Shown here: positions 466-62,606 of the stretch, one piece after another
How the letters are laid out: each line of letters begins with the position of its first letter
How positions within the stretch are numbered: the stretch's first letter is position 1
IMG/VR virus record: IMGVR_UViG_3300014638_000001
Length of the DNA stretch: 64,000 nucleotides
Strand: one strand, 5' to 3'
Origin: a virus
Notes under the pieces: model-generated
Told to the model about the DNA's origin: nothing
Seen by the model: only the letters and a program-made list of their open reading frames with translations
Database searches by the model: none
Translations under genes and position numbers: made by a program

Positions 466-541
466 GTCGTAGAGCGCGACCGGTCGAGCGCCCTGCCTCT
501 CAAGCAGGTGATAGTCGGTCCAATTCCGACCTACGACGCCA
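466..541 (+). tRNA. tRNA-Glu(CTC), non-canonical (A8, T-loop TCCAATT)
   Basis: Acceptor GTCGTAG/CTACGAC, anticodon arm CCTGC-CTCTCAA-GCAGG, encoded CCA. Confidence 0.85.
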
Positions 542-542
542 T

Positions 543-618
543 GGCGCAGAGCACGAACGGATGAGTGCCTTCTCTTTCAAAGAAGTGATAGTGGGGTCAG
601 CACCCACCTGCGCTACCA
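543..618 (+). tRNA. tRNA-Glu(TTC), non-canonical (A8, T-loop GTCAGCA)
   Basis: GGCGCAG/CTGCGCT, CTTCT-CTTTCAA-AGAAG, T-stem GTGGG/CCCAC, CCA. Confidence 0.8.
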
Positions 619-620
619 AT

Positions 621-697
621 GCCCCGGTCGTCCAACGGCAGGACGCCTGACTTTGACTCAGGAGATCATTTGGGTTCAATTCCCTGCCGGGGTGCCA
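621..697 (+). tRNA. tRNA-Gln(TTG)
   Basis: GCCCCGG/CCGGGGT, CCTGA-CTTTGAC-TCAGG, GGTTCAATTCC, CCA. Confidence 0.85.
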
Positions 698-703
698 AAA
701 ACT

Positions 704-1210
704 TTTCCCGATACGCAAGCGTTTTCGGGTATACTGGGCGTGTCAGTGAGAGACCCTGTCAGGACCGAGGCGCAATCGGAGAAACTGTGCTGGCGGGCGG
801 AGAAAATTAGAGCCGCTTAACAACCCGGAGAAAGACGGGCTTGCATCGTAAATCCGCCGATCGTGAATGCGGATGAGTTTCCGGAACCTCATAAAGTGCC
901 GGTGGGGTGTCGGCTGTCGCCCGGTTCGCCGGCTGTCCGTTATCAGCCGGCACGAATTTCTGGAAGGAGGGTCACGACCATGAAGACAGCGTAGGAGGCT
1001 AACTTCATGATCGTGTATCACTTCAAGGGCGCGCGGCGCCGCTTGCTGGATCGGGAACGCTTGGAACGAGGCGAACCCAAACAGAATCGCGAGCGTAACC
1101 GTTCGCTCAACTGCCGTTTCCCGAAAGAAGGGAAGGCATATCGCCTGAAAGGGCGGGCTCGGTTCAAGACTGGGAAGAAGAACCGGGATCGTAAGAAGAG
1201 CAGTTTGTAG
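704..1210 (+). ncRNA. candidate large (~500 nt) structured ncRNA, family unassigned
   Basis: Long-range complementarity 705-721 with 1040-1057, 752-757 with 968-973, 1109-1114 with 1200-1205; many local hairpins with purine-rich/GNRA loops; lies between tRNA genes. Strand inferred from the array. Confidence 0.6.
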
Positions 1211-1211
1211 G

Positions 1212-1229
1212 CACTCCTATATAGGAGTG
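1212..1229. repeat. 18-bp palindrome CACTCCTATATAGGAGTG, copy 1 (perfect)
   Basis: Intergenic, between the ncRNA candidate and tRNA-Trp. Confidence 0.95.
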
Positions 1230-1234
1230 TTTGT

Positions 1235-1308
1235 GCCCCGGTTGCCGATGGTGAGGCGGAACGGCTCCAACCCGTTTCTTCGGCGTTCGAATCGTCGCTG
1301 GGGTGCCA
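1235..1308 (+). tRNA. tRNA-Trp(CCA)
   Basis: GCCCCGG/CTGGGGT, AACGG-CTCCAAC-CCGTT, GTTCGAATC, CCA. Confidence 0.88.
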
Positions 1309-1309
1309 T

Positions 1310-1387
1310 GCGTCGGTAGCTAAATTGGATTAAAGCTCTTGACTCTTAATCAAGTGATTGCGGGTTCGACTCCCGCCCGACGCACCA
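1310..1387 (+). tRNA. tRNA-Lys(CTT)
   Basis: GCGTCGG/CCGACGC, CTTGA-CTCTTAA-TCAAG, GGTTCGACTCC, CCA. Confidence 0.92.
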
Positions 1388-1394
1388 AAGTTTT

Positions 1395-1471
1395 CAGCGA
1401 GTAGGCAAGCCTGGAGAGCCGCCTGGCCTGGGACTAGGAAATCGTTGGTTCAAATCCAACCTCGCTGACCA
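1395..1471 (+). tRNA. tRNA-Pro(TGG) with C33
   Basis: CAGCGAG/CTCGCTG, CCTGG-CCTGGGA-CTAGG, GGTTCAAATCC, CCA. Confidence 0.88.
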
Positions 1472-1485
1472 GAATTGGAGGCAGC

Positions 1486-2043
1486 ATGACGCGAAGATGG
1501 TTCTTTGGGATGGCCGGTGGTGTTGGTGGCTGGTTCGGCATTAAGCCGGCTATGGCAAAACCTACGCCGCCGGCGATCAAGCAGAGCCCACGGGTTACTT
1601 ATTCTACATTAATCGGCGCTCCTGGATACGTTTTCGTAAGCCTGTATTTTGACGTCGAATGGAATGCAGAAATGAAGATGACAGTTGGGCGCCCCGGTTC
1701 CCATCCATTAACCACGAGTTGGATCACAGGTCCATATCCAGGGAACCCCAGTCGGCGTCGTTGGCTTGGATTCACGTCGATATCTGGGCTCGTAGCTCAC
1801 CCACCGTTACTGCTGACGCTGACGAGTGATCGGCCCTTTGTGGTCCACCAGGTGGTGCCGTCGTACCGGCTGCCAGCGGCTGACAGAATCTCGGAACTTC
1901 GCGAGGCGCGTCATGTTTTGGATGGTCTTACGGACAAGTCGCCGCGGCAACGCGCACTTGAGATTGAATCTGCATCGGCTCGCGAACAGATCCATGAAGC
2001 TCGCGTGCAGCGGTACAACGATGCCATGAAGGGTTTTGATTAA
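1486..2043 (+). CDS. hypothetical protein with twin-arginine (Tat)-like N-terminus, 185 aa
   Basis: GGAGG SD; N-terminus MTRRWFFGMAGGVGG...AMA. Confidence 0.65.
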   Translation: MTRRWFFGMAGGVGGWFGIKPAMAKPTPPAIKQSPRVTYSTLIGAPGYVFVSLYFDVEWNAEMKMTVGRPGSHPLTTSWITGPYPGNPSRRRWLGFTSISGLVAHPPLLLTLTSDRPFVVHQVVPSYRLPAADRISELREARHVLDGLTDKSPRQRALEIESASAREQIHEARVQRYNDAMKGFD

Positions 2044-2081
2044 GCCCGGCTCGTTTAGCGGCCAGGACCGGCGGTTTGTAA
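2044..2081 (+). pseudogene. 5' half of a tRNA (anticodon loop TTTGTAA, Thr-like), no 3' half
   Basis: GCCCGGC-TC-GTTTAGCGGCCAGGAC-C-GGCGG-TTTGTAA, then unrelated sequence ahead of the HNH gene. Confidence 0.5.
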
Positions 2082-2113
2082 CATAGATCAAGCCGTGTTA
2101 TAATTGACATGGT

Positions 2114-2578
2114 TTGGGGACTAAAACATGCAGTAAATGCAAGAGAGAATTGGAGAAGGAGGTATTCGCCCCGAGGGATGGTAATCCAAACAAGCTAGCG
2201 TCATGGTGCCGAGAATGCACTCGTTCTTGGGCGAATCTTCAATATTCAACAAATTCAAAACGTAGGCAGGCAATCGCTGATAATAGAAAGCTGTGTAAGT
2301 TACGGAATTACGCGCTCTTGTCCACGTTGAAGGATTTCCCGTGCATCGATTGCAAGAACCGTTTCCCGGCCTGCTGTATGGATTTTGACCACATCAGAGG
2401 CAAAAAGTTGCATAATGTGGCTTGGTTGGTCAATGTTTCAGAGCGTAGACTTCTTGAAGAGATCGCGAAGTGTGACCTAGTCTGTGCCAATTGTCATAGA
2501 ATCAGGACGGCCAGGCGAGGCGGATGGTTTAAAATGAATGCCGAGATAGCACAAGTTGGCGGTGCGCCGGTTCTGTAA
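2114..2578 (+). CDS. HNH endonuclease (free-standing, in tRNA array)
   Basis: CSKC..CREC zinc knuckle; CIDC..DFDH..CDLVCANCHRIRT HNH motif; TTG start. Confidence 0.85.
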   Translation: MGTKTCSKCKRELEKEVFAPRDGNPNKLASWCRECTRSWANLQYSTNSKRRQAIADNRKLCKLRNYALLSTLKDFPCIDCKNRFPACCMDFDHIRGKKLHNVAWLVNVSERRLLEEIAKCDLVCANCHRIRTARRGGWFKMNAEIAQVGGAPVL

Positions 2579-2616
2579 ACCGGAGGTTGCGAGATCGTGG
2601 CTCGCTCTCGGCTCCA
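2540..2616 (+). tRNA. tRNA-Thr(TGT), C33, aberrant T-loop ATCGTGG
   Basis: GCCGAGA/TCTCGGC, CCGGT-TCTGTAA-ACCGG, T-stem GCGAG/CTCGC, CCA. Confidence 0.75.
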
Positions 2617-2617
2617 T

Positions 2618-2691
2618 GCCTCGGTAGCTCAGTGGCAGAGCAGTGGTTTCGTAAACCACCGACGAGAGTTCAATTCTCTCCCTTGGCTCCA
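2618..2691 (+). tRNA. tRNA-Thr(CGT)
   Basis: AGCTCAGTGGCAGAGC D-arm, GTGGT-TTCGTAA-ACCAC, GAGTTCAATTCTC, CCA; two acceptor-stem mismatches. Confidence 0.82.
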
Positions 2692-2699
2692 GAGTTTAC

Positions 2700-2774
2700 G
2701 CGGTGGTGGCCGAGAGGCAAGGTACCTCACTGTCTATGAGGACAACGCGGGTTCGAATCCCGTCCATCGCGCCA
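2700..2774 (+). tRNA. tRNA-Asp(GTC)
   Basis: GCGGTGG/CCATCGC, CCTCA-CTGTCTA-TGAGG, GGTTCGAATCC, CCA. Confidence 0.9.
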
Positions 2775-2775
2775 A

Positions 2776-2849
2776 GCGGGTGTGGCTCATTGGTTGAGTT
2801 CCAGCCTTCCAAGCTGGCCAAGAGAGTTCGATTCTCTCCACTCGCTCCA
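2776..2849 (+). tRNA. tRNA-Gly(TCC)
   Basis: GCGGGTG/CACTCGC, CCAGC-CTTCCAA-GCTGG, U73, CCA. Confidence 0.92.
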
Positions 2850-2854
2850 AAGTT

Positions 2855-3115
2855 ATGAAGACGATCGAGGTGCTGATTCCTGGTAAGTGCTCGATGATCC
2901 GCGGCGCTCTCGCCACGTGTGCGATCGAGGGGAACCAGTTCGCGATCGATGCGATCGAGACCATCCGGCGTGTGGATATCGGCGAGCCGGTTGGGGCGCG
3001 GTACGCGAAGCAGTTGAATGAGTTTTTGAGCGGGCGTAATTCAGCGGCAGAATGTCTGACTGCCAGTCAGAACGTCGCGGGTTCGAGTCCCGCCGCCCGC
3101 ACCAAGCCCTTGTAG
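2855..3115 (+). CDS. possible small hypothetical protein whose 3' end overlaps tRNA-Gly(GCC)
   Basis: Fills the 180-nt gap between tRNAs with phage-like codons; weak SD. Confidence 0.35.
   Translation: MKTIEVLIPGKCSMIRGALATCAIEGNQFAIDAIETIRRVDIGEPVGARYAKQLNEFLSGRNSAAECLTASQNVAGSSPAARTKPL
3030..3104 (+). tRNA. tRNA-Gly(GCC), A73 discriminator
   Basis: GCGGGCG/CGCCCGC, TCTGA-CTGCCAG-TCAGA, GGTTCGAGTCC, ACCA. Confidence 0.92.
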
Positions 3116-3179
3116 CTCGACGGTCGAGCATTCGGCCTTTAACCGAATGGACTGGGTCCGATTCCCAGCGAGGGCACCA
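3106..3179 (+). tRNA. tRNA-Lys(TTT), C33, T-loop TCCGATT
   Basis: GCCCTTG/CGAGGGC, TTCGG-CCTTTAA-CCGAA, CCA. Confidence 0.85.
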
Positions 3180-3186
3180 AAGATTG

Positions 3187-3445
3187 GATGTAGTTGGTCA
3201 TAGGGCAAGGCTCCTTCAGGGCGGCTGGCCGCCAAGCAAGCGCTATGGCCGTAAAACCCCAAGGGAGACCGAAAGCCCGAAAGGGCATGGAGAATGCCGG
3301 TGAGGACGAAAGAAAACCATGCAGGGTTTGTCCAAGAGGCCGAGCTAGATCCCCCGGAACGGCATGGCGGGCCGGGAACGACACAGGACGGTGAAGCACG
3401 TCCGTCCGAAAGATGACCGCGGGGTTACGAGGTAGCTTCTACATG
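3187..3445 (+). ncRNA. candidate ~260-nt structured ncRNA, family unassigned
   Basis: Ends pair (ATGTAG 3188-3193 / CTACAT 3439-3444); helices GGTCATAG/CTATGGCC, GCCC-GAAA-GGGC, GGCAT/ATGCC, GGAC/GTCC, CCCGG/CCGGG, GGACG/CGTCC. Confidence 0.5.
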
Positions 3446-3447
3446 AT

Positions 3448-3524
3448 GCCGGGCAACCACGCTGGTCGCGTGGACTGGTCCTACAAACCAGCACAGTGGA
3501 GTTCGATTCTCCGGCCCGGTACCA
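3448..3524 (+). tRNA. tRNA-Val(TAC), A8 and C33
   Basis: GCCGGGC/GCCCGGT, CTGGT-CCTACAA-ACCAG, GGAGTTCGATTCTCC, CCA. Confidence 0.82.
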
Positions 3525-3525
3525 C

Positions 3526-3600
3526 CCTCGAGAGGCTCTCCGGACGAGCAGTCGGCCGATAACCGACAGGGAGATGGTTCGATTCCATCCTCGAGGACCA
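3526..3600 (+). tRNA. tRNA-Ile(GAT), A8 and C33
   Basis: CCTCGAG/CTCGAGG, GTCGG-CCGATAA-CCGAC, GATGGTTCGATTCCATC, CCA. Confidence 0.85.
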
Positions 3601-3646
3601 AGTTCTATGACTAAAAGACTGGCAACAGATCAAGATTATATGATCC

Positions 3647-3725
3647 GCTGGCGTAGCTCAAGACCGGCCAGAGCACATGGCTTATAACCGTGAGGTTCTT
3701 GGTTCAAATCCAAGCGCCAGCACCA
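3647..3725 (+). tRNA. tRNA-Ile(TAT)
   Basis: GCTGGCG/CGCCAGC, CATGG-CTTATAA-CCGTG, GGTTCAAATCC, CCA. Confidence 0.88.
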
Positions 3726-3759
3726 GGTTCCGATGTTAGAATACTGAGGAGGAATTTTC

Positions 3760-4140
3760 ATGACGCAGATAGAAGCCGACAATTACAACATCACGCTGCC
3801 CATCACGACAGCCGCGGAAGCGAATGCCTGTTTCATGCAACCCGCACAATTGCAAGACGTTGACGCGAGTGGCAAGACCACGATTTACTTACGGCCGTAC
3901 GAATGTGCGACCAAATCCGGCGCACAGATGCTCGCGACCGCTGTTGGTGGGTCAATCAACGGCCAATTGATCCCCAGCCTGAAGGTCTCGCCGACGATCT
4001 ACACGGTCATCTGGCCAGACAATAGCAGCTCGCTTGCCGGTTGGTATATCTACAACTGGCTGATTCTGCATGGCTGGAACTGGAGTGGCGGAATTGATGT
4101 TGGATCGCCGCTGGCCTGGACCGCGCCGGCAGCGAAGTAA
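3760..4140 (+). CDS. hypothetical protein, 126 aa
   Basis: GAGGAGG SD, ATG, fills gap between tRNAs. Confidence 0.7.
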   Translation: MTQIEADNYNITLPITTAAEANACFMQPAQLQDVDASGKTTIYLRPYECATKSGAQMLATAVGGSINGQLIPSLKVSPTIYTVIWPDNSSSLAGWYIYNWLILHGWNWSGGIDVGSPLAWTAPAAK

Positions 4141-4145
4141 GCTAT

Positions 4146-4219
4146 TCCGGGATAGCTCAGTGGCAGAGCTCAGTTTTGGTAAAGCTGCGACTCGGGTTCG
4201 ATTCCCGGTCCTGGATCCA
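4146..4219 (+). tRNA. tRNA-Thr(GGT)
   Basis: TCCGGGA/TCCTGGA, CAGTT-TTGGTAA-AGCTG, GGTTCGATTCC, CCA. Confidence 0.85.
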
Positions 4220-4225
4220 GATTAT

Positions 4226-4380
4226 GCCGCCGTAGCTCAGTGGTGGATGTGCGGCTTCGAAGCGTTGTCCGGACCGCGCTTCGGGGTGCATCACATCTCC
4301 CATGTGGGGTGACCTGCATGGCTTTGAGAGCACCGACTGTGGAAGCCGGAGCATGGATGGTTCGAATCCTCCCGGCGGCT
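4226..4380 (+). tRNA. His(GTG)-like tRNA with 82-nt structured insertion in the D-loop (4245-4326); irregular anticodon stem, no encoded CCA
   Basis: GCCGCCG/CGGCGGC acceptor; removing 4245-4326 restores GCTCAGTGGTAGAGC; CTGTGGA loop; GGTTCGAATCC. Confidence 0.6.
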
Positions 4381-4390
4381 TTACCCACAT

Positions 4391-4466
4391 TCCGGGGTAG
4401 CCGACGTGGTCAAGGCACTGGCCTGAAACGCCAGCAATAGTCGTTCGATTCGACTCCCCGGAACCA
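4391..4466 (+). tRNA. tRNA-Phe(GAA)
   Basis: TCCGGGG/CCCCGGA, CTGGC-CTGAAAC-GCCAG, GTTCGATTC, CCA. Confidence 0.88.
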
Positions 4467-7272: not shown

Positions 7273-7709
7273 TGCCGGGGACAAAGCGCAAACGGGTGAG
7301 GAAGAGTCTCATCGAGAAACTCCCGGAGAGAATCCGAGAATCCGCGGTGATGCGTCGGCAGTCCATCCGCCCGAGCAGTATGACGAAGTACCAGCAGCAG
7401 ATGCTGTTGCTGTTCATGCCGGAAATCTCCCGGTGGTTTTTCGCTCGGCTCATGGACGGTGTCAAACGCGGGAACAAGACAGATCAGGCATTGTGGGCTG
7501 AAATGGCTGGGCATATCCAGCGCAAGAACGGCATCAACATCAACCAGCAGATCCTGAGCCAGCAGAACGTGAACGCGACGGCGCCGCGGTATTCGATGGA
7601 CCAGATTGTTCGAGAGCTCCAGGAACAAACCGAAATGAAGACGATCGACACGACGCTCGCAATCGAGCCAGGAGGCAGCGATGTTAACAACGTCGCGGTG
7701 GAAGCGTGA
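7272..7709 (+). CDS. putative terminase small subunit (positional), 145 aa
   Basis: ATG coupled to upstream TGA; basic N-terminus; overlaps the TerL start. Confidence 0.45.
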   Translation: MPGTKRKRVRKSLIEKLPERIRESAVMRRQSIRPSSMTKYQQQMLLLFMPEISRWFFARLMDGVKRGNKTDQALWAEMAGHIQRKNGININQQILSQQNVNATAPRYSMDQIVRELQEQTEMKTIDTTLAIEPGGSDVNNVAVEA

Positions 7710-10700
7710 CGTCGGCGTCGATGAACTCGTCGAGCATTTCGATCAGGAGAAGTACCTCGCCGACTGCAGTGTTCTAACGGTCGTGGAGATCCGTCAGCTC
7801 GCTGCCGAGATCAAGCGGTGTCAGGAAAGCTTCGAATACGCCGCGAGAAATTATTTTAAGATCATCAACAAGCAGCGGGAAGATCAGTATCTGACCTTGA
7901 ACGAGGGCCAGGACGTACTGCTGGAGAAAATCTACCGGCTGCGGGATCGCGGTAAACCACAGAAACTACAGATCATCAAAGCACGCCAGCTCGGAGCCAT
8001 GCATCCCACGACCAACGTGTTGACGGCAGAGCTCAATTGGGTACGAATCGATTCTCTCCGGCCAGGCCAGAAAATCATTGGCGTCGACGAGTTCCCGGCT
8101 GGCGGCCGTGGTGTTGGTAGAAAATTCCGTACTGCTGTTGTTCTCAAAAAGTGGACTGTCCAGAAGGAGGCATTTCGGATCACGATGGGAAACGGTGCCA
8201 TCTTGACGGCCACGGGAGATCACCCCTTCTTATGCAAGAAACGCGGCAATGTCCAGACCGAATGGCGATTGACCGCCGAGCATCCAAAAGGCAAGAAATC
8301 CTCATCGCCAATTCGGGTTGGTGATGAGATTAGGTGCGTAATTCCGCCATGGTATCGCGAGCAGGCTTTTGAGTTTGATGACGGATGGTTTGCTGGATTG
8401 ATGGACGGCGAAGGATCCTTGCGGGCGAAGAAAAACGGCGGCATTGAGGCGACGGTATCCCAGGTAGCTGGGCCGGTTCTTAACCGCGCGGCTCGCTACC
8501 TAGACTCGCACGGGTACCCATTCGCTGTTGATGTCGACAAACGAAAGAAGGCGGATAGTACGAAACTTGGCGATCAGCCGGTATACAAGCTTGTGCTGAA
8601 CAGTATCCCGCAGGTATTAAGACTTCTTGGGAACACCAGGCCAACGCGATTTGAGGGAAGGGATATATGGGAGGGAAAAGACTTACCTAACAACGGCGTA
8701 GGCCAATCATGGCAAAAAGTAGTCTCCATTGAATCGATTGGCGAGCAGGAGATGGTGGACATTGAAACCAGCACGGGAACGTTCATCGCGGAAGGCTTTA
8801 TCACCCACAACTGTTCGACATTGATCGAGGCGCTGATCGCCTGGCGCACGATGTTTTTCCCGAATGTAGCCGCGATGGTGGTCTCGCACGTCGGCACGCA
8901 CGCCAGCTTCCTGTTCCAGAAGATGGTCCACATCTACGACCAATTGCCATGGTGGATGAAGCCGATGCTCGCCTCGCGTAAGGAAGAGGAGGGGCTTGTT
9001 TTTAAGAATCCTGAGCCGGAATTACGTCGCGTGGATCCAGGGTTAAATTCCAGTGTGATTGTCCAGGCAGCCACACAGGTCTCGGGCGTTGGTGAGGGCT
9101 ACACCATCAATGCGATGCACTTCTCCGAGTACTGCAGCGTCGACGATTCCAAGGCGCGCGAAATCATTGAGGGTGACATGGTGCACGCGCTGGCGCCCAA
9201 TGTGGGTACTTTCGCGATCTTGGAATCCACAGCGAAGGGTGCTGGCCGGTTTTCTGAGGATTTATGGGTTGCGAATGTGGATCTAGCTGAAAAGGCTGAC
9301 TGGTATACAGTCTTCTTGCCATGGTTTTTTGAAAAACAGCGCGTAGTGGCTCCGGAAGATGGCTGGCGCCCAAGCGAGCCCGAACTCGCGATGCGTTTGC
9401 GTGTCGAGAAAGAGTGGGTGCAGTGCACTCATTGTGGCGAGTTCCGCGAACGTTACTTCAAAACGTTTGACATCAAAGGCAGTGAATGCACGGACTGCCA
9501 CAAGGGTACTCGAGAACCGTATCTCCTCAGCGATCCGCAGCTCGCCTGGATGCAGGAGCGCGTGCTCAATGCGCGCCGGCGCGGTCCGGAATCACTGAAA
9601 GAATTGCGCCAGGAATTGTGCACGACGGCCGAAGAGGCGTTTCAAATTTCTGGCATCGCTGTCTTCCCCGAGGATACGCAGGAGTTTGTGAACGAGACGA
9701 TTTGCCCGGCGGTTTGGACCGGAAACCTCGATCGCAAAGGCAAGTTTCACTGCTCGATTCGGGAAGTCGATGAGAACGGCAAAGAACACTTCAAGTGTTT
9801 CCAGGAATGGTGCACGGTGGATCATCGCTGGGATCTGGAAAGTCCCCTACAGATCTGGGAACTTCCGGAACCAGGCGCGCGGTACTGCATTGGTGTGGAT
9901 ATCGCCGAAGGGTTGGCAACCGAGAAATCGGACTACTCAGTATGCTGGGTAAATAAGATCGGTGATGCGCCGTCGCCAGACACACACGTTGCGACTTATC
10001 GATCGAATTCAATCAATCCGTCTGACCTAGCCGCCGTCTGCAACTTCCTTGGCCGTTGGTACAACGAAGCACAACTCTCGATTGAGTACAACGTCTATCA
10101 GACGACCGGCGACAACGTCAAGAATTTCTATCAGTACCCAAATCTATTCCGGTGGAAGCACTACGACTCCGTGACCGGGATGAACTCGAACAAGCTGCAC
10201 TGGCTCACACAACAGAATTCGAAACCGCAGCTATGGCAGACCGGCGTTCGCGCGCTTCGCGAGCGTTCGTGGTTCATCCACGACAAGATGTTCGCGCACG
10301 AGATGAAACGATTCCAGAAAGAGGAATACGACTCAAAGAAAGCGGAAGCCGAGACGAACTTTCATGACGATGTCATCATGGCTGCGCTGATCGCGCGCTA
10401 CACCAGTCACGATCTTGATTCCTACGACGAGAACGCCTATGCGGCCGCGGATGCTGGGCCGGCATTTGTCCAGATGCTCGAGTGGACGATGGATTGCCTG
10501 ACCTGCAAATTCACATGGCAAGCTAACAATCCAGAAGAGTACAGGCGTTGCCCATCACCGAAATGCAATTCGCCGATGTTGCATGGCAAGCCGAACACCA
10601 AAGAGGGACCCACTAAGCTGGGGGGAAAGTACGTTTTCCAGCAGATCGAAGAAGAAGTCAATGAGCTCGATACCCTGCCGGAAGACGGCACGTTAGAAAG

Positions 10701-10722
10701 GAATTTGGCACCAATCCTATGA
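7681..10722 (+). CDS. terL: terminase large subunit with intein
   Basis: IIKARQLG|CST Walker A; MHFSEY Walker B; ESTAKG; YCIGVDIAEG nuclease; HDDVIMA. Confidence 0.93.
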   Translation: MLTTSRWKRDVGVDELVEHFDQEKYLADCSVLTVVEIRQLAAEIKRCQESFEYAARNYFKIINKQREDQYLTLNEGQDVLLEKIYRLRDRGKPQKLQIIKARQLGAMHPTTNVLTAELNWVRIDSLRPGQKIIGVDEFPAGGRGVGRKFRTAVVLKKWTVQKEAFRITMGNGAILTATGDHPFLCKKRGNVQTEWRLTAEHPKGKKSSSPIRVGDEIRCVIPPWYREQAFEFDDGWFAGLMDGEGSLRAKKNGGIEATVSQVAGPVLNRAARYLDSHGYPFAVDVDKRKKADSTKLGDQPVYKLVLNSIPQVLRLLGNTRPTRFEGRDIWEGKDLPNNGVGQSWQKVVSIESIGEQEMVDIETSTGTFIAEGFITHNCSTLIEALIAWRTMFFPNVAAMVVSHVGTHASFLFQKMVHIYDQLPWWMKPMLASRKEEEGLVFKNPEPELRRVDPGLNSSVIVQAATQVSGVGEGYTINAMHFSEYCSVDDSKAREIIEGDMVHALAPNVGTFAILESTAKGAGRFSEDLWVANVDLAEKADWYTVFLPWFFEKQRVVAPEDGWRPSEPELAMRLRVEKEWVQCTHCGEFRERYFKTFDIKGSECTDCHKGTREPYLLSDPQLAWMQERVLNARRRGPESLKELRQELCTTAEEAFQISGIAVFPEDTQEFVNETICPAVWTGNLDRKGKFHCSIREVDENGKEHFKCFQEWCTVDHRWDLESPLQIWELPEPGARYCIGVDIAEGLATEKSDYSVCWVNKIGDAPSPDTHVATYRSNSINPSDLAAVCNFLGRWYNEAQLSIEYNVYQTTGDNVKNFYQYPNLFRWKHYDSVTGMNSNKLHWLTQQNSKPQLWQTGVRALRERSWFIHDKMFAHEMKRFQKEEYDSKKAEAETNFHDDVIMAALIARYTSHDLDSYDENAYAAADAGPAFVQMLEWTMDCLTCKFTWQANNPEEYRRCPSPKCNSPMLHGKPNTKEGPTKLGGKYVFQQIEEEVNELDTLPEDGTLERNLAPIL
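7996..8811 (+). mobile_element. intein, 272 aa, Ala1 (class 2-like), LAGLIDADG endonuclease motif
   Basis: G|AMHPTT...TATGDHPF (block B)...WFAGLMDGEG...MVDIET (block F Asp)...ITHN|C. Confidence 0.9.
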
Positions 10723-61293: not shown

Positions 61294-61554
61294 TATACTG
61301 GCCGCAAGTAGTACCCAATCTGTTAGGGAGTGGGCAGGCAGGTCGTGAGATATTCCTGCCCACGTGCCGGGTAGTGGCTACTGATGCGTTGGTTAAATAT
61401 GCACTTGGCCGCGTGACTGCTCCGACCGAACCTCTGGACTTCCGCATAAAGATTCACGTACAATTGCATCGTAGCAAATTTGGCAACGAAATTTTCATCG
61501 AGTGGTTTCATCGCTCGTAATTTGTTGCAAGCAAATACAATGAGTACGTTGTTA

Positions 61555-61584
61555 TTGCAATTTCACTTGCGTTTTCTGTACCAT
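61555..61584 (+). promoter_or_regulatory. sigma70-like promoter TTGCAA-18-TACCAT facing the 33-aa peptide gene (possible antisense RNA)
   Basis: AT-rich context, TG extended -10. Confidence 0.4.
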
Positions 61585-61656
61585 CAGTTTGTACGTGCTG
61601 CGTTTTTCGGTAAGCCGTAAAAACGGCGACCATTTTGGCGACATTGAAAAAGGCCC

Positions 61657-61758
61657 TCACCAGTTTTGAGGCCAGTGGGGGCAGGGTGTTATCCAGACCA
61701 GAACCACAGCAGCTACGCCGGGCCTGATCTGGATAATCAGGAGGGCAACGAGTTGCAT
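61657..61758 (-). CDS. 33-aa hydrophobic peptide MQLVALLIIQIRPGVAAVVLVWITPCPHWPQNW
   Basis: GGAG SD 8 nt upstream; stop lies in a GGCC..GGCC-TTTTT terminator hairpin. Confidence 0.55.
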   Translation of the reverse strand: MQLVALLIIQIRPGVAAVVLVWITPCPHWPQNW

Positions 61759-61820
61759 CGTTGCTTCTCCATTCTCCGAGGGTATATTTCAGGGCTGCAA
61801 CCCTGAGTCACCTCGGGAAT

Positions 61821-61914
61821 TGGTGCGGTGGGGGTGGGAGTTGCACCCACAAATCCCCCCTTAGGAGATTACGGTTTAAAAGACCGTTCGGCTAGCTGAT
61901 TGCCATCCCCACCG
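61821..61914 (-). tRNA. class II (long variable arm) tRNA-like gene with UUU anticodon and extended acceptor stem
   Basis: CGGTGGGG/CCCCACCG; D-stem GGC/GCC lacking GG; ACGGT-CTTTTAA-ACCGT; 7-bp V-arm; GTGGG-TGCAACT-CCCAC; ends GCACCA. Confidence 0.75.
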
Positions 61915-61968
61915 TTGCTCTAAAGATTCTCACAAAAAACGCTAAACACGGCAATACCGCTCCCTGGG

Positions 61969-62415
61969 TCAGCTTTTTTTGCGCTCGTGCTTCCTGTGTT
62001 CAGCCCATTGCTGAATGAATACCTTGTGGTCCGGGGTGACGCATGTGCCCTTGTAGTCGTTATCAAACGCGGAAGGCATGGCCGCCCGAAGAGATGCCGT
62101 AAGATTGGGTGCCGGTTCTGTTCTGAGCAAGACCAGATTTTCTAAGGCTTCCGCCTCAGCTTGGCCGAGAGAGTCGAGCCATCGTTTCATCTTTACTTTG
62201 TAGCGTTTGCGCTTCCACCAACCCATACACCAGGCTGTGATTCTCCCTGTAAGGTCAACGAAAATAAGGAATAGAACCAGCACCTCGATGACGAGCATCC
62301 ATTCATCGACTGGTCTGGTATCAGGGCCTAGTATGTGCCGCAGGGTGTCCAGCATAATCAGCAAGACAACCAGCAGTCTAGCAAGGCTAGGCCATTTTGG
62401 GGCAGACCAACGCAT
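61969..62415 (-). CDS. membrane protein (two TM) inside the cassette; start uncertain (first ATG lies in the TIR)
   Basis: LLVVLLIMLDTL..WMLVIEVLVLFLIFVDLTG. Confidence 0.6.
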   Translation of the reverse strand: MRWSAPKWPSLARLLVVLLIMLDTLRHILGPDTRPVDEWMLVIEVLVLFLIFVDLTGRITAWCMGWWKRKRYKVKMKRWLDSLGQAEAEALENLVLLRTEPAPNLTASLRAAMPSAFDNDYKGTCVTPDHKVFIQQWAEHRKHERKKS

Positions 62416-62441
62416 CAGTAGCCACTACCACGTGCCGCACG

Positions 62442-62606
62442 TCAAATTCGGTTCTCACCAAACTTCCGCTTGAGTTTATCCTCAGCCGCGCGCATCATTC
62501 GCTCACGGCGCTCTCTCTGGTTAAGCCGCTTGGCAACACGAGCTTGCTGGCGAGTCATGTAGCCTTCCACTTCAGCGTGCACCTTGTCTCGCCGCTTTTT
62601 ACGCAT
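62442..62606 (-). CDS. small basic protein, 54 aa (MRKKRRDKVHAEVEGYMTRQQ...)
   Basis: Overlaps the hydrolase stop; not in the ORF track. Confidence 0.55.
   Translation of the reverse strand: MRKKRRDKVHAEVEGYMTRQQARVAKRLNQRERRERMMRAAEDKLKRKFGENRI

Follow-up and report, generated by a model that had tools for sequence, protein, structure and literature searches.

A serine-like tRNA gene with a lysine anticodon as cargo of an IS1-family transposon derivative in an uncultured phage

The cassette and its class II tRNA gene

The window, i.e. the complete 64,000-nucleotide stretch of IMG/VR record IMGVR_UViG_3300014638_000001 that was analysed, belongs to an uncultured phage of at least 100 kb, which is abundant in peat and wetland metagenomes and for which no close relative was found among GenBank phages. 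The locus of interest is a cassette bounded by inverted repeats and a target-site duplication (Table 1). Its minus strand carries, in this order, the gene of a 148-aa protein, a tRNA gene, a set of strong hairpins including a 33-codon ORF, and a terminator-like hairpin. This tRNA, hereafter the cassette tRNA, lies outside the phage's own tRNA arrays and is cargo of the cassette. In the phage, about 30 tRNA genes are grouped in two arrays, one at 466-4466 of the window and a second one (L019:9447-11766) which was reached beyond the window.

Table 1 Features of the cassette, the cassette tRNA and the sister element. Positions refer to the window unless a contig is named
Feature	Position	Strand	Basis or content
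Cassette, 1,060 bp, transposase-less IS1-family derivative	61370..62429	.	Inverted ends and comparison with L059
Terminal inverted repeat GGTAGTGGCTACTGATGCGTTGGT, 24 bp	61370..61393	+	0 matches expected by chance
Terminal inverted repeat, second arm, holding the start codon of the 148-aa ORF	62406..62429	-	Perfect 24-bp match
Target-site duplication ACGTGCCG, left copy, 8 bp	61362..61369	+	Direct repeat
Target-site duplication ACGTGCCG, right copy	62430..62437	+	Direct repeat
Empty insertion site, expected sequence …CCCACGTGCCGCACGTC…			
148-aa cargo protein	61969..62415	-	Translation
147-nt segment (55-nt leader and cassette tRNA), 2,597 bp in the sister strain instead	61823..61969	-	blastn against L050
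Whole cassette tRNA	61914-61821	-	C-GGUGGGG-AU-GGC-AAUCAGCUA-GCC-GA-ACGGU-CUUUUAA-ACCGU-AAUCUCCUAAGGGGGGAUU-U-GUGGG-UGCAACU-CCCAC-CCCCACC-G-CACCA
C(-1), possible partner of G73 in an 8-bp acceptor (8/5 reading)	61914	-	Sequence and fold
Body of the cassette tRNA, G1 to G73	61826..61913	-	Acceptor GGUGGGG/CCCCACC, D-arm GGC-AAUCAGCUA-GCC; Rfam, ARAGORN -ps, MFE
Anticodon UUU in loop C32-U33-UUU-A37-A38	61878..61880	-	Read from sequence
Variable arm, 20 nt, AAUCUCCU-AAG-GGGGGAUU + U, 7-8 bp	61851..61870	-	Rfam alignment and fold
T-arm GUGGG-UGCAACU-CCCAC	61834..61850	-	Rfam alignment and comparison with phage tRNAs
3' tail CACCA after G73, CCA out of register	61821..61825	-	Sequence
Conserved hairpin module directly 3' of the tRNA slot	61640..61822	-	Fold, ORF list, terminator scan
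33-codon hydrophobic ORF in the module, GGAGAA upstream	61657-61758	-	ORF list
Terminator-like hairpin and U-run in the module	61671-61655	-	Terminator scan
Full IS1-family transposon, 3,510 bp	L059:4487-7996		314-aa transposase and passenger ORFs
Second slot tRNA, class I	L050:5961-6032	+	Also in L059; directly upstream of the TTCCCGAGG... module

A preliminary description of this DNA had placed a tRNA fold with a long variable arm here on the minus strand, and the fold was recovered from the sequence itself, Rfam, ARAGORN with the -ps option and minimum free energy (MFE) folding. Rfam model RF00005 aligned with the gene end to end (model positions 1-71) with a score of 38.4 bits (gathering threshold 29 bits) and E = 1.3e-6 in the 551-nt local search space, or about 1e-4 when scaled to the whole window; the IMG/VR copy of the gene again scored 38.4 bits. 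The ARAGORN check proposed in the preliminary description gave a result that depended on the threshold: the default run missed the gene, as did a whole-window Rfam run with gathering filters, whereas the relaxed -ps run called a tRNA-Lys(ttt) of 89 nt. The MFE fold and the centroid were both a cloverleaf with a long extra arm (-39.9 kcal/mol; z = -3.06; 1 of 200 shuffled sequences equally stable), the cloverleaf was kept when the gene was folded within its 575-nt context, and all 28-29 stem pairs were intact. The cassette tRNA is thus a genuine, structurally intact class II tRNA gene.

Most of the structural details described before were reproduced, namely A at position 8, a 3-bp D-stem (GGC/GCC, with an optional U.G fourth pair) whose 7-9-nt loop AAUCAGCUA contains no GG, a perfect anticodon stem (ACGGU/ACCGU, 5 bp, flanked by an A.A mismatch) with loop CUUUUAA, and a T-loop UGCAACU. 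U33 and A37 provide a canonical anticodon-loop context. Two stem lengths had to be revised in part. The 8-bp acceptor can form through the additional C(61914):G(61826) pair, but both programs aligned 7 bp (G1-C72, G2-C71, U3-A70 and G4-C69 among them) with G73 as the discriminator; the long variable arm is where it had been placed, with 7-8 bp counted instead of 7. The 3' end GCACCA is present, although its CCA is out of register, by 2 nt with the 7-bp acceptor and by 1 nt with the 8-bp acceptor. The elbow is not canonical, since G18G19 are missing from the D-loop and position 55 of the T-loop is G; U54, C56 and A58 are retained. The UGCAAC(U) motif of the T-arm loop is also seen in the GCAACG/CGUUGC hairpin loop of the downstream module, and the first module hairpin has a related UUGCAG; besides the T-arm, the sites concerned are 61781-61806 and 61745-61765 (both minus strand). 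The T-arm and 3' strand matched the Tymovirus tRNA-like element model at 19.9 bits, under the cut-off.

The class II tRNAs of the phage itself are Ser(CGA), Ser(GCU), Tyr, Leu(UAG) and Leu(CAA). For identity, the acceptor stem, T-arm and discriminator (31 positions) were compared across all phage tRNAs. The cassette tRNA differed from Ser(GCU) at 5 and from Ser(CGA) at 6 of the 31 positions, and from each of the other 27 at 10 or more; G73 is common to it and both tRNA-Ser genes. Because it is nearest to the two tRNA-Ser genes and has G73 and an 8-bp variable arm, its body is of the serine type, and the SerRS identity set (long variable arm, G73, Ser-type acceptor stem) is present. The anticodon is not a serine one (NGA or GCU) but UUU, with the U36-A37 of tRNA-Lys. 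The 4-5-nt variable loop and A73 of a tRNA-Lys body are replaced by a 20-nt arm and G73, whereas A73 and a class I body are found in the Lys tRNAs of the phage itself. The mismatch between the tRNA body and its Lys anticodon, as claimed in the preliminary description, was upheld by the Ser-type acceptor/T domain, G73 and the long variable arm: judged by its sequence, the cassette tRNA is a serine-type body with the lysine anticodon UUU. An Ala identity, which had also been considered, was not supported, pair 3:70 being U:A. The normal Lys(UUU) tRNA mentioned there exists, together with a Lys(CUU) tRNA.

Among the phage's 30 tRNAs, the cassette tRNA alone lacks the D-loop GG and an encoded, in-register N73-CCA, both of which are found in 29/29 others, and its T-loop UGCAACU with G55 is unique. 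C33 occurs in 8 of the other 29, including the ordinary Lys(UUU), A8 occurs in five, and several have non-UUC T-loops. The 38 bits of the cassette tRNA are exceeded by every other scored tRNA gene of the phage except one (range 34.6-70 bits). Its sequence was identical in three other contigs of the phage that were compared, and these contigs therefore give no evidence on selection. In the phage's genes, 16 of every 1,000 codons are AAA and 24 are AAG, with Lys codons making up 4%.

No genes for tRNA processing, RNA repair or synthetases were found in the window ORFs scanned. At 4226-4380 (plus strand), an Rfam tRNA match of 35.4 bits is spread over 155 nt, which suggests a large insert. A 1,013-aa ORF at 7681-10719 (plus strand) has an intein splicing domain (Pfam PF14890, below the curated cut-off). 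The second tRNA array is adjoined by a 75-aa gene (L015:1470-1697, minus strand) with an Acb2/Tad1 hairpin domain, which occurs in anti-CBASS/Thoeris sponge proteins.

The IS1-family element and its tRNA slot

A feature overlooked in the preliminary description is that the tRNA is the cargo of an IS1-family transposon derivative. The IS1 hallmark, inverted ends with a target duplication of 8-9 bp, was found in the window cassette; a DDE_Tnp_IS1 transposase is missing from this copy, and the sister copy at the same insertion site has one. The inverted repeats were also considered as the borders of an invertible segment, which was rejected because the 8-mers beside them are repeated in direct orientation and a transposase is encoded in the full copy. 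No further copy of the inverted repeat was found in about 84 kb of the phage, and 401 genomes from a single phylum had no match when as many as 3 mismatches were allowed. The 19-mer of the repeat had 4 matches in GTDB genomes, all diverging past base 19, and they were discarded as chance. A '76-aa gene' over the left repeat looks spurious; with the insertion removed, it would run antisense through the neighbouring genes.

The AlphaFold2 model of the 148-aa protein (pLDDT 89.5) has two transmembrane helices and a winged-helix-like C-terminal domain. There are 37 remote homologues of this protein, and no tRNA was found beside its homologues at four other loci examined (49-40% identity), so the tRNA is not a fixed partner of the family. 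The model had no significant match in the PDB, and its best match among AFDB clusters was a weak one to 'Superinfection exclusion protein B' (E 0.03, TM 0.51). As a weak lead, this SieB-like resemblance of the predicted structure would place the cassette in phage-phage conflicts. At 62413-62445 (minus strand), TTGACG, 12 nt, TAGTGG and 6 nt precede the ATG of the 148-aa ORF. This arrangement may represent a hybrid promoter with a leaderless start, the -35-like box of the candidate being in phage DNA and the remainder in the duplication and inverted repeat. An antisense 'mask' RNA beside the cassette tRNA was not found within 1.5 kb on each side in a scan that set aside the gene's own opposite strand (best duplex -17 kcal/mol).

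The 90%-identity cluster of the 148-aa protein includes a 161-aa variant on a 103-kb contig, L050, which is from the same phage, the flanks being 99% identical in blastn. In this sister strain the insertion agrees with the window cassette in its inverted ends, its site and its 8-bp duplication, and the element is 3,510 bp long. The 2,597 bp found there in place of the 147 nt of the window hold no trace of those 147 nt and contain three small ORFs, the 314-aa transposase, a 75-aa ORF and a tRNA. The transposase matched DDE_Tnp_IS1 (PF03400) at 39.9 bits (cut-off 24.1) and has an InsA-type zinc ribbon. The passenger ORFs in L059 (145, 85, 89 and 75 aa) gave no informative family match. The left part shared by the two elements is identical over 346 nt and then has 17 differences in the last ~85 nt before the junction, and the shared right part, from the hairpin module to the cassette end, has 2 differences in 443 nt. 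This sequence pattern indicates that the swap arose by recombination with a diverged sister element rather than by simple deletion. The short form with the cassette tRNA is the commoner one, with about 50 contig records versus 4 for the long form.

The tRNA in the sister slot is of canonical class I type, has GG and UUC, and is found by default ARAGORN (RF00005, 48.5 bits). Its anticodon loop ACGUCAC gives the anticodon GUC (Asp) and has C33, and its acceptor GGGCGGC/GCCGUCC contains G3:U70, which together with A73 are alanine marks; the 3' end is CCU in place of CCA. It showed no sequence kinship with the phage's Ala or Asp tRNAs or with the cassette tRNA. By these marks, it is a candidate Asp-to-Ala miscoding tRNA.

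A relative of the cassette tRNA was present in a wetland metatranscriptome, in a 296-nt contig with a depth of 16. It is the sole known sister of the cassette tRNA, and 106 nt of this RNA contig are all that is available of it. The contig matches 61856-61811 of the window without gaps (43/46 identical), covering the variable-arm end, T-arm, acceptor 3' strand, CACCA and trailer. In the sequence upstream, CGGTCTTAAAAACCGTAAT..., the anticodon stem and the loop flanks are identical, the anticodon loop is CUUAAAA, which gives the anticodon UAA (Leu), and the variable-arm sequence then differs. C32, U33, A37 and A38 are conserved between the two, their differences are confined to the loops and variable arm, and the first hairpin of the module shows a compensatory change from A-U to G-C in the contig. 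The contig starts about 2 nt inside the tRNA 5' end, ends near the terminator, and is deeper than the neighbouring ORF. Its ends fit a processed or separately started RNA, which makes expression likely but is a hint, as contigs cannot prove ends.

Searches for further relatives covered several data sets. A 19-mer of the UAA sister had no match in IMG/VR and one chance match inside a coding gene in JGI metagenomes. In IMG/VR, the T-arm/acceptor pattern matched the phage's own contig and, by chance, three non-tRNA sequences. The generic anticodon-arm pattern returned just ordinary Trp, Leu and Cys tRNAs and one Sec-like tRNA, and the hairpin-module pattern returned the phage's own contig alone. 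A blastn 'distant' search against phages and E. coli genomes gave nothing meaningful, a query by way of antisense ORFs had no match in the protein database, and the RNA-run search with the cassette tRNA alone gave no run.

Possible roles of the slot tRNAs

SerRS and AlaRS ignore the anticodon of their tRNAs, and LysRS recognises its tRNA chiefly by the UUU anticodon. A missense role, as raised in the preliminary description, is plausible for the cassette tRNA because its Ser-type body does not fit the Lys anticodon, and this role gains weight because the two sister tRNAs of the same slot show the same kind of mismatch. The reading that we prefer, though tentatively, is that the cassette tRNA is charged with Ser by an anticodon-blind synthetase and is able to miscode AAA/AAG. 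According to this reading, it would be transcribed together with, or just after, the gene of the 148-aa membrane protein, and RNase P would cleave the precursor at G1. After 3' trimming and CCA addition it would be charged by SerRS with the anticodon unread, and Ser would be placed at some AAA/AAG codons, while LysRS would probably compete for the tRNA via the anticodon. The cassette would then carry a miscoding and potentially toxic tRNA, comparable to an allo-tRNA, on an ordinary 7/5 frame. It has been reported that a long variable arm and G73/U73 mark SerRS substrates, that SerRS accepts 7/5, 8/5, 8/4 and 9/3 frames, and that allo-tRNAs which combine a Ser or Ala identity with a foreign anticodon are active in decoding in E. 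coli and toxic (Mukai et al., PMC5389517). For both slot tRNAs that are fully sequenced, SerRS or AlaRS is the enzyme suggested by the acceptor marks, and the anticodon is that of another amino acid; the discriminator is wrong for the anticodon-cognate enzyme in each case (G73 versus A73 for Lys, A73 versus G73 for Asp). Since sister cassettes hold other mismatched tRNAs, the mismatch may be deliberate and not a product of decay.

Several points weigh against Ser charging and miscoding. SerRS contacts the tRNA elbow, and charging may fail as the elbow is altered (no GG, G55). The in-register CCA is not encoded and must be added after transcription. Lys-to-Ser miscoding would damage the phage's own proteins, given its use of AAA and AAG, and LysRS reading the UUU anticodon could leave the tRNA simply charged with Lys.

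The main rival explanation, which is possible but on the unlikely side, is that the slot holds a non-decoding, tRNA-like element for processing or stability, either an RNase P / RNase Z signal or a protective 5' cap, and that the tRNA fold parts the membrane-protein mRNA from the downstream RNA with its hairpins and small ORF. If the fold served as a processing signal only, then the anticodon, CCA end and elbow bases would be free to drift. This agrees with the two unrelated tRNAs in the slot beside an almost unchanged module, with the missing in-register CCA in both the cassette tRNA and the L050 tRNA, with the loss of D-loop GG and T-loop U55 from the former, and with the placement of the sister differences in loops and variable arm. 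The RNA contig is also unbroken from the tRNA 5' end through the module, as if the tRNA stayed attached. However, drift is unlikely to have given Ser and Ala identity sets with matching discriminators in both full tRNAs, the L050 tRNA is otherwise fully canonical, and four anticodon-loop bases (C32, U33, A37, A38) have been kept between the cassette tRNA and its UAA sister. Should the processing explanation hold, the locus would clearly illustrate, for bacteria, how a mobile element can put a tRNA fold to new use as a signal for RNA processing.

It is quite unlikely that the cassette tRNA acts as a Lys-accepting spare, charged by LysRS via the anticodon, or as a decoy against cutters of tRNA-Lys(UUU) (PrrC-type, PARIS AriB), for which the odd body of the tRNA would be uncleavable or a sponge. 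There is a precedent in phage T5, which defeats PARIS with its own uncleavable tRNA-Lys (PMC11464382), and a conflict setting would be consistent with the heavy investment in tRNA genes (about 30, 8 with C33) and with the weak superinfection-exclusion likeness of the cassette protein. However, the phage already owns Lys(UUU) and Lys(CUU) tRNAs, the G73 and Ser-type body are poor for LysRS, and the sister anticodons UAA and GUC indicate that the slot is not Lys-specific. Furthermore, no anticodon-nuclease or RNA-repair gene was found in the parts examined. A dead relic, i.e. a decaying and functionless tRNA-Ser or tRNA-Leu pseudogene trapped in the cassette, is improbable: the low Rfam score and the loss of conserved elbow bases and CCA end would fit it, and an allo-tRNA pseudogene overlapping a transposon-related ORF has been reported (Mukai et al., PMC5389517), but every stem pair is intact, the short form is the common one, and the metatranscriptome contig with the sister copy is covered more deeply than the neighbouring ORF.

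Beyond Ser charging and miscoding by the cassette tRNA itself, the three slot tRNAs may be read jointly. The exchangeable 'tRNA slot' of IS1-family transposons in peat phages would then be stocked with deliberately mis-identified 7/5 tRNAs (Ser bodies with Lys or Leu anticodons, an Ala acceptor with Asp), which anticodon-blind synthetases would charge and which would form, with the SieB-like protein, a mobile miscoding weapon or toxin in phage-phage or phage-host conflict. We regard this joint reading as unlikely.

To our knowledge, natural tRNAs with clashing identity and anticodon are rare and have so far been mainly odd-shaped allo-tRNAs. In the phage, this clash is found on an ordinary cloverleaf, and the new aspect is a mismatched tRNA on a canonical frame in an exchangeable slot of a phage IS1-family transposon. 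Three versions (Ser/Lys, Ser/Leu and Ala/Asp) in one exchangeable slot point to selection for miscoding or for another use. The cassette is compact and suited to E. coli-type reporter assays. The locus is also a warning for annotation, as such tRNA genes are overlooked by default ARAGORN and a filtered Rfam run.

Comparison with known systems

With the IS1 family, the element shares the 24-bp ends starting with GGT and the 8-bp target duplication, and the full copy also shares the transposase with its InsA-type zinc ribbon and DDE_Tnp_IS1 domain. It differs in that the full copy reaches 3.5 kb with several passenger genes and a tRNA, and the window copy has lost the transposase. IS1-like relatives with GGTAGTGG ends and an 8-bp duplication were found in other viral contigs. 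A 3.1-kb IS1-like element in another viral contig (L056:2484-5628) has 25-nt ends GGTAGTGGGTCACTTTGAAA... and the duplication CGCGCCCT, and no tRNA was detected in it. A 71-nt RNA was seen 120 nt upstream of an IS1-like transposase (55% identical to that of L050) at L052:1547-1617 and L053:583-653. Only the tRNA-like ends of the tmRNA model match this RNA (31.8 bits, below the cut-off), which has G3:U70, an ACCA end and a single long hairpin as its middle part.

Compared with bacterial tRNA-Sec (8/5 frame, 6-bp D-stem with 4-nt loop, UCA), the cassette tRNA fits in the possible 8/5 frame alone. Separately, IMG/VR 3300045988 contigs (L021, L027, L035, L037) carry a tRNA-like phage gene whose anticodon loop is CUUCAAA (UCA) and whose variable arm is very long; it could be a Sec-type or opal-suppressor tRNA. 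The tRNA-Lys with which T5 counters PARIS (PMC11464382) is likewise an additional tRNA brought by a phage, with a Lys anticodon and a body unlike that of the host, but it is an ordinary class I tRNA with anticodon-stem changes, whereas the cassette tRNA is a Ser-type class II tRNA with G73. The acceptor GGUGGGG is one pair away from that of the phage's tRNA-Ser(GCU). The T-stem GUGGG/CCCAC, G73, long variable arm and 3-bp D-stem are shared with the phage's tRNA-Ser genes, from which the cassette tRNA differs by the UUU anticodon, the absence of G18G19 and of 20a/20b, the T-loop UGCAACU and the lack of an in-register CCA.

The allo-tRNAs (Mukai et al. 2017, Nucleic Acids Res 45:2776, PMC5389517) have in common with the cassette tRNA a long variable arm (8 bp here), G73 (G73/U73 in allo-tRNAs), a Ser-type identity and a non-cognate, i.e. 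non-serine, anticodon, and their Ala-type G3:U70 identity with a non-cognate sense anticodon is paralleled by the L050 sister. Likewise, both come from peat or soil material, are linked to mobile elements and have sister copies with different anticodons; in data from peat and forest soil, allo-tRNAs have been seen in the vicinity of toxin-antitoxin loci and of genes related to transposons (PMC5389517). However, allo-tRNAs are defined by a 12-bp branch split 8/4 or 9/3, a Sec-like D-arm and a lengthened (6-bp) anticodon stem (PMC5389517). None of these was found, so the allo-tRNA membership considered in the preliminary description was given up. In place of the 8/4 or 9/3 split, the cassette tRNA is 7/5 (8/5 with C-1:G73) with a 5-bp T-stem; in place of the Sec-like long D-stem with tetraloop, it has a D-stem of 3-4 bp and a loop of 7-9 nt; its anticodon stem is 5 bp; and, unlike the allo-tRNAs, it is carried by an IS1-family element inside a phage.
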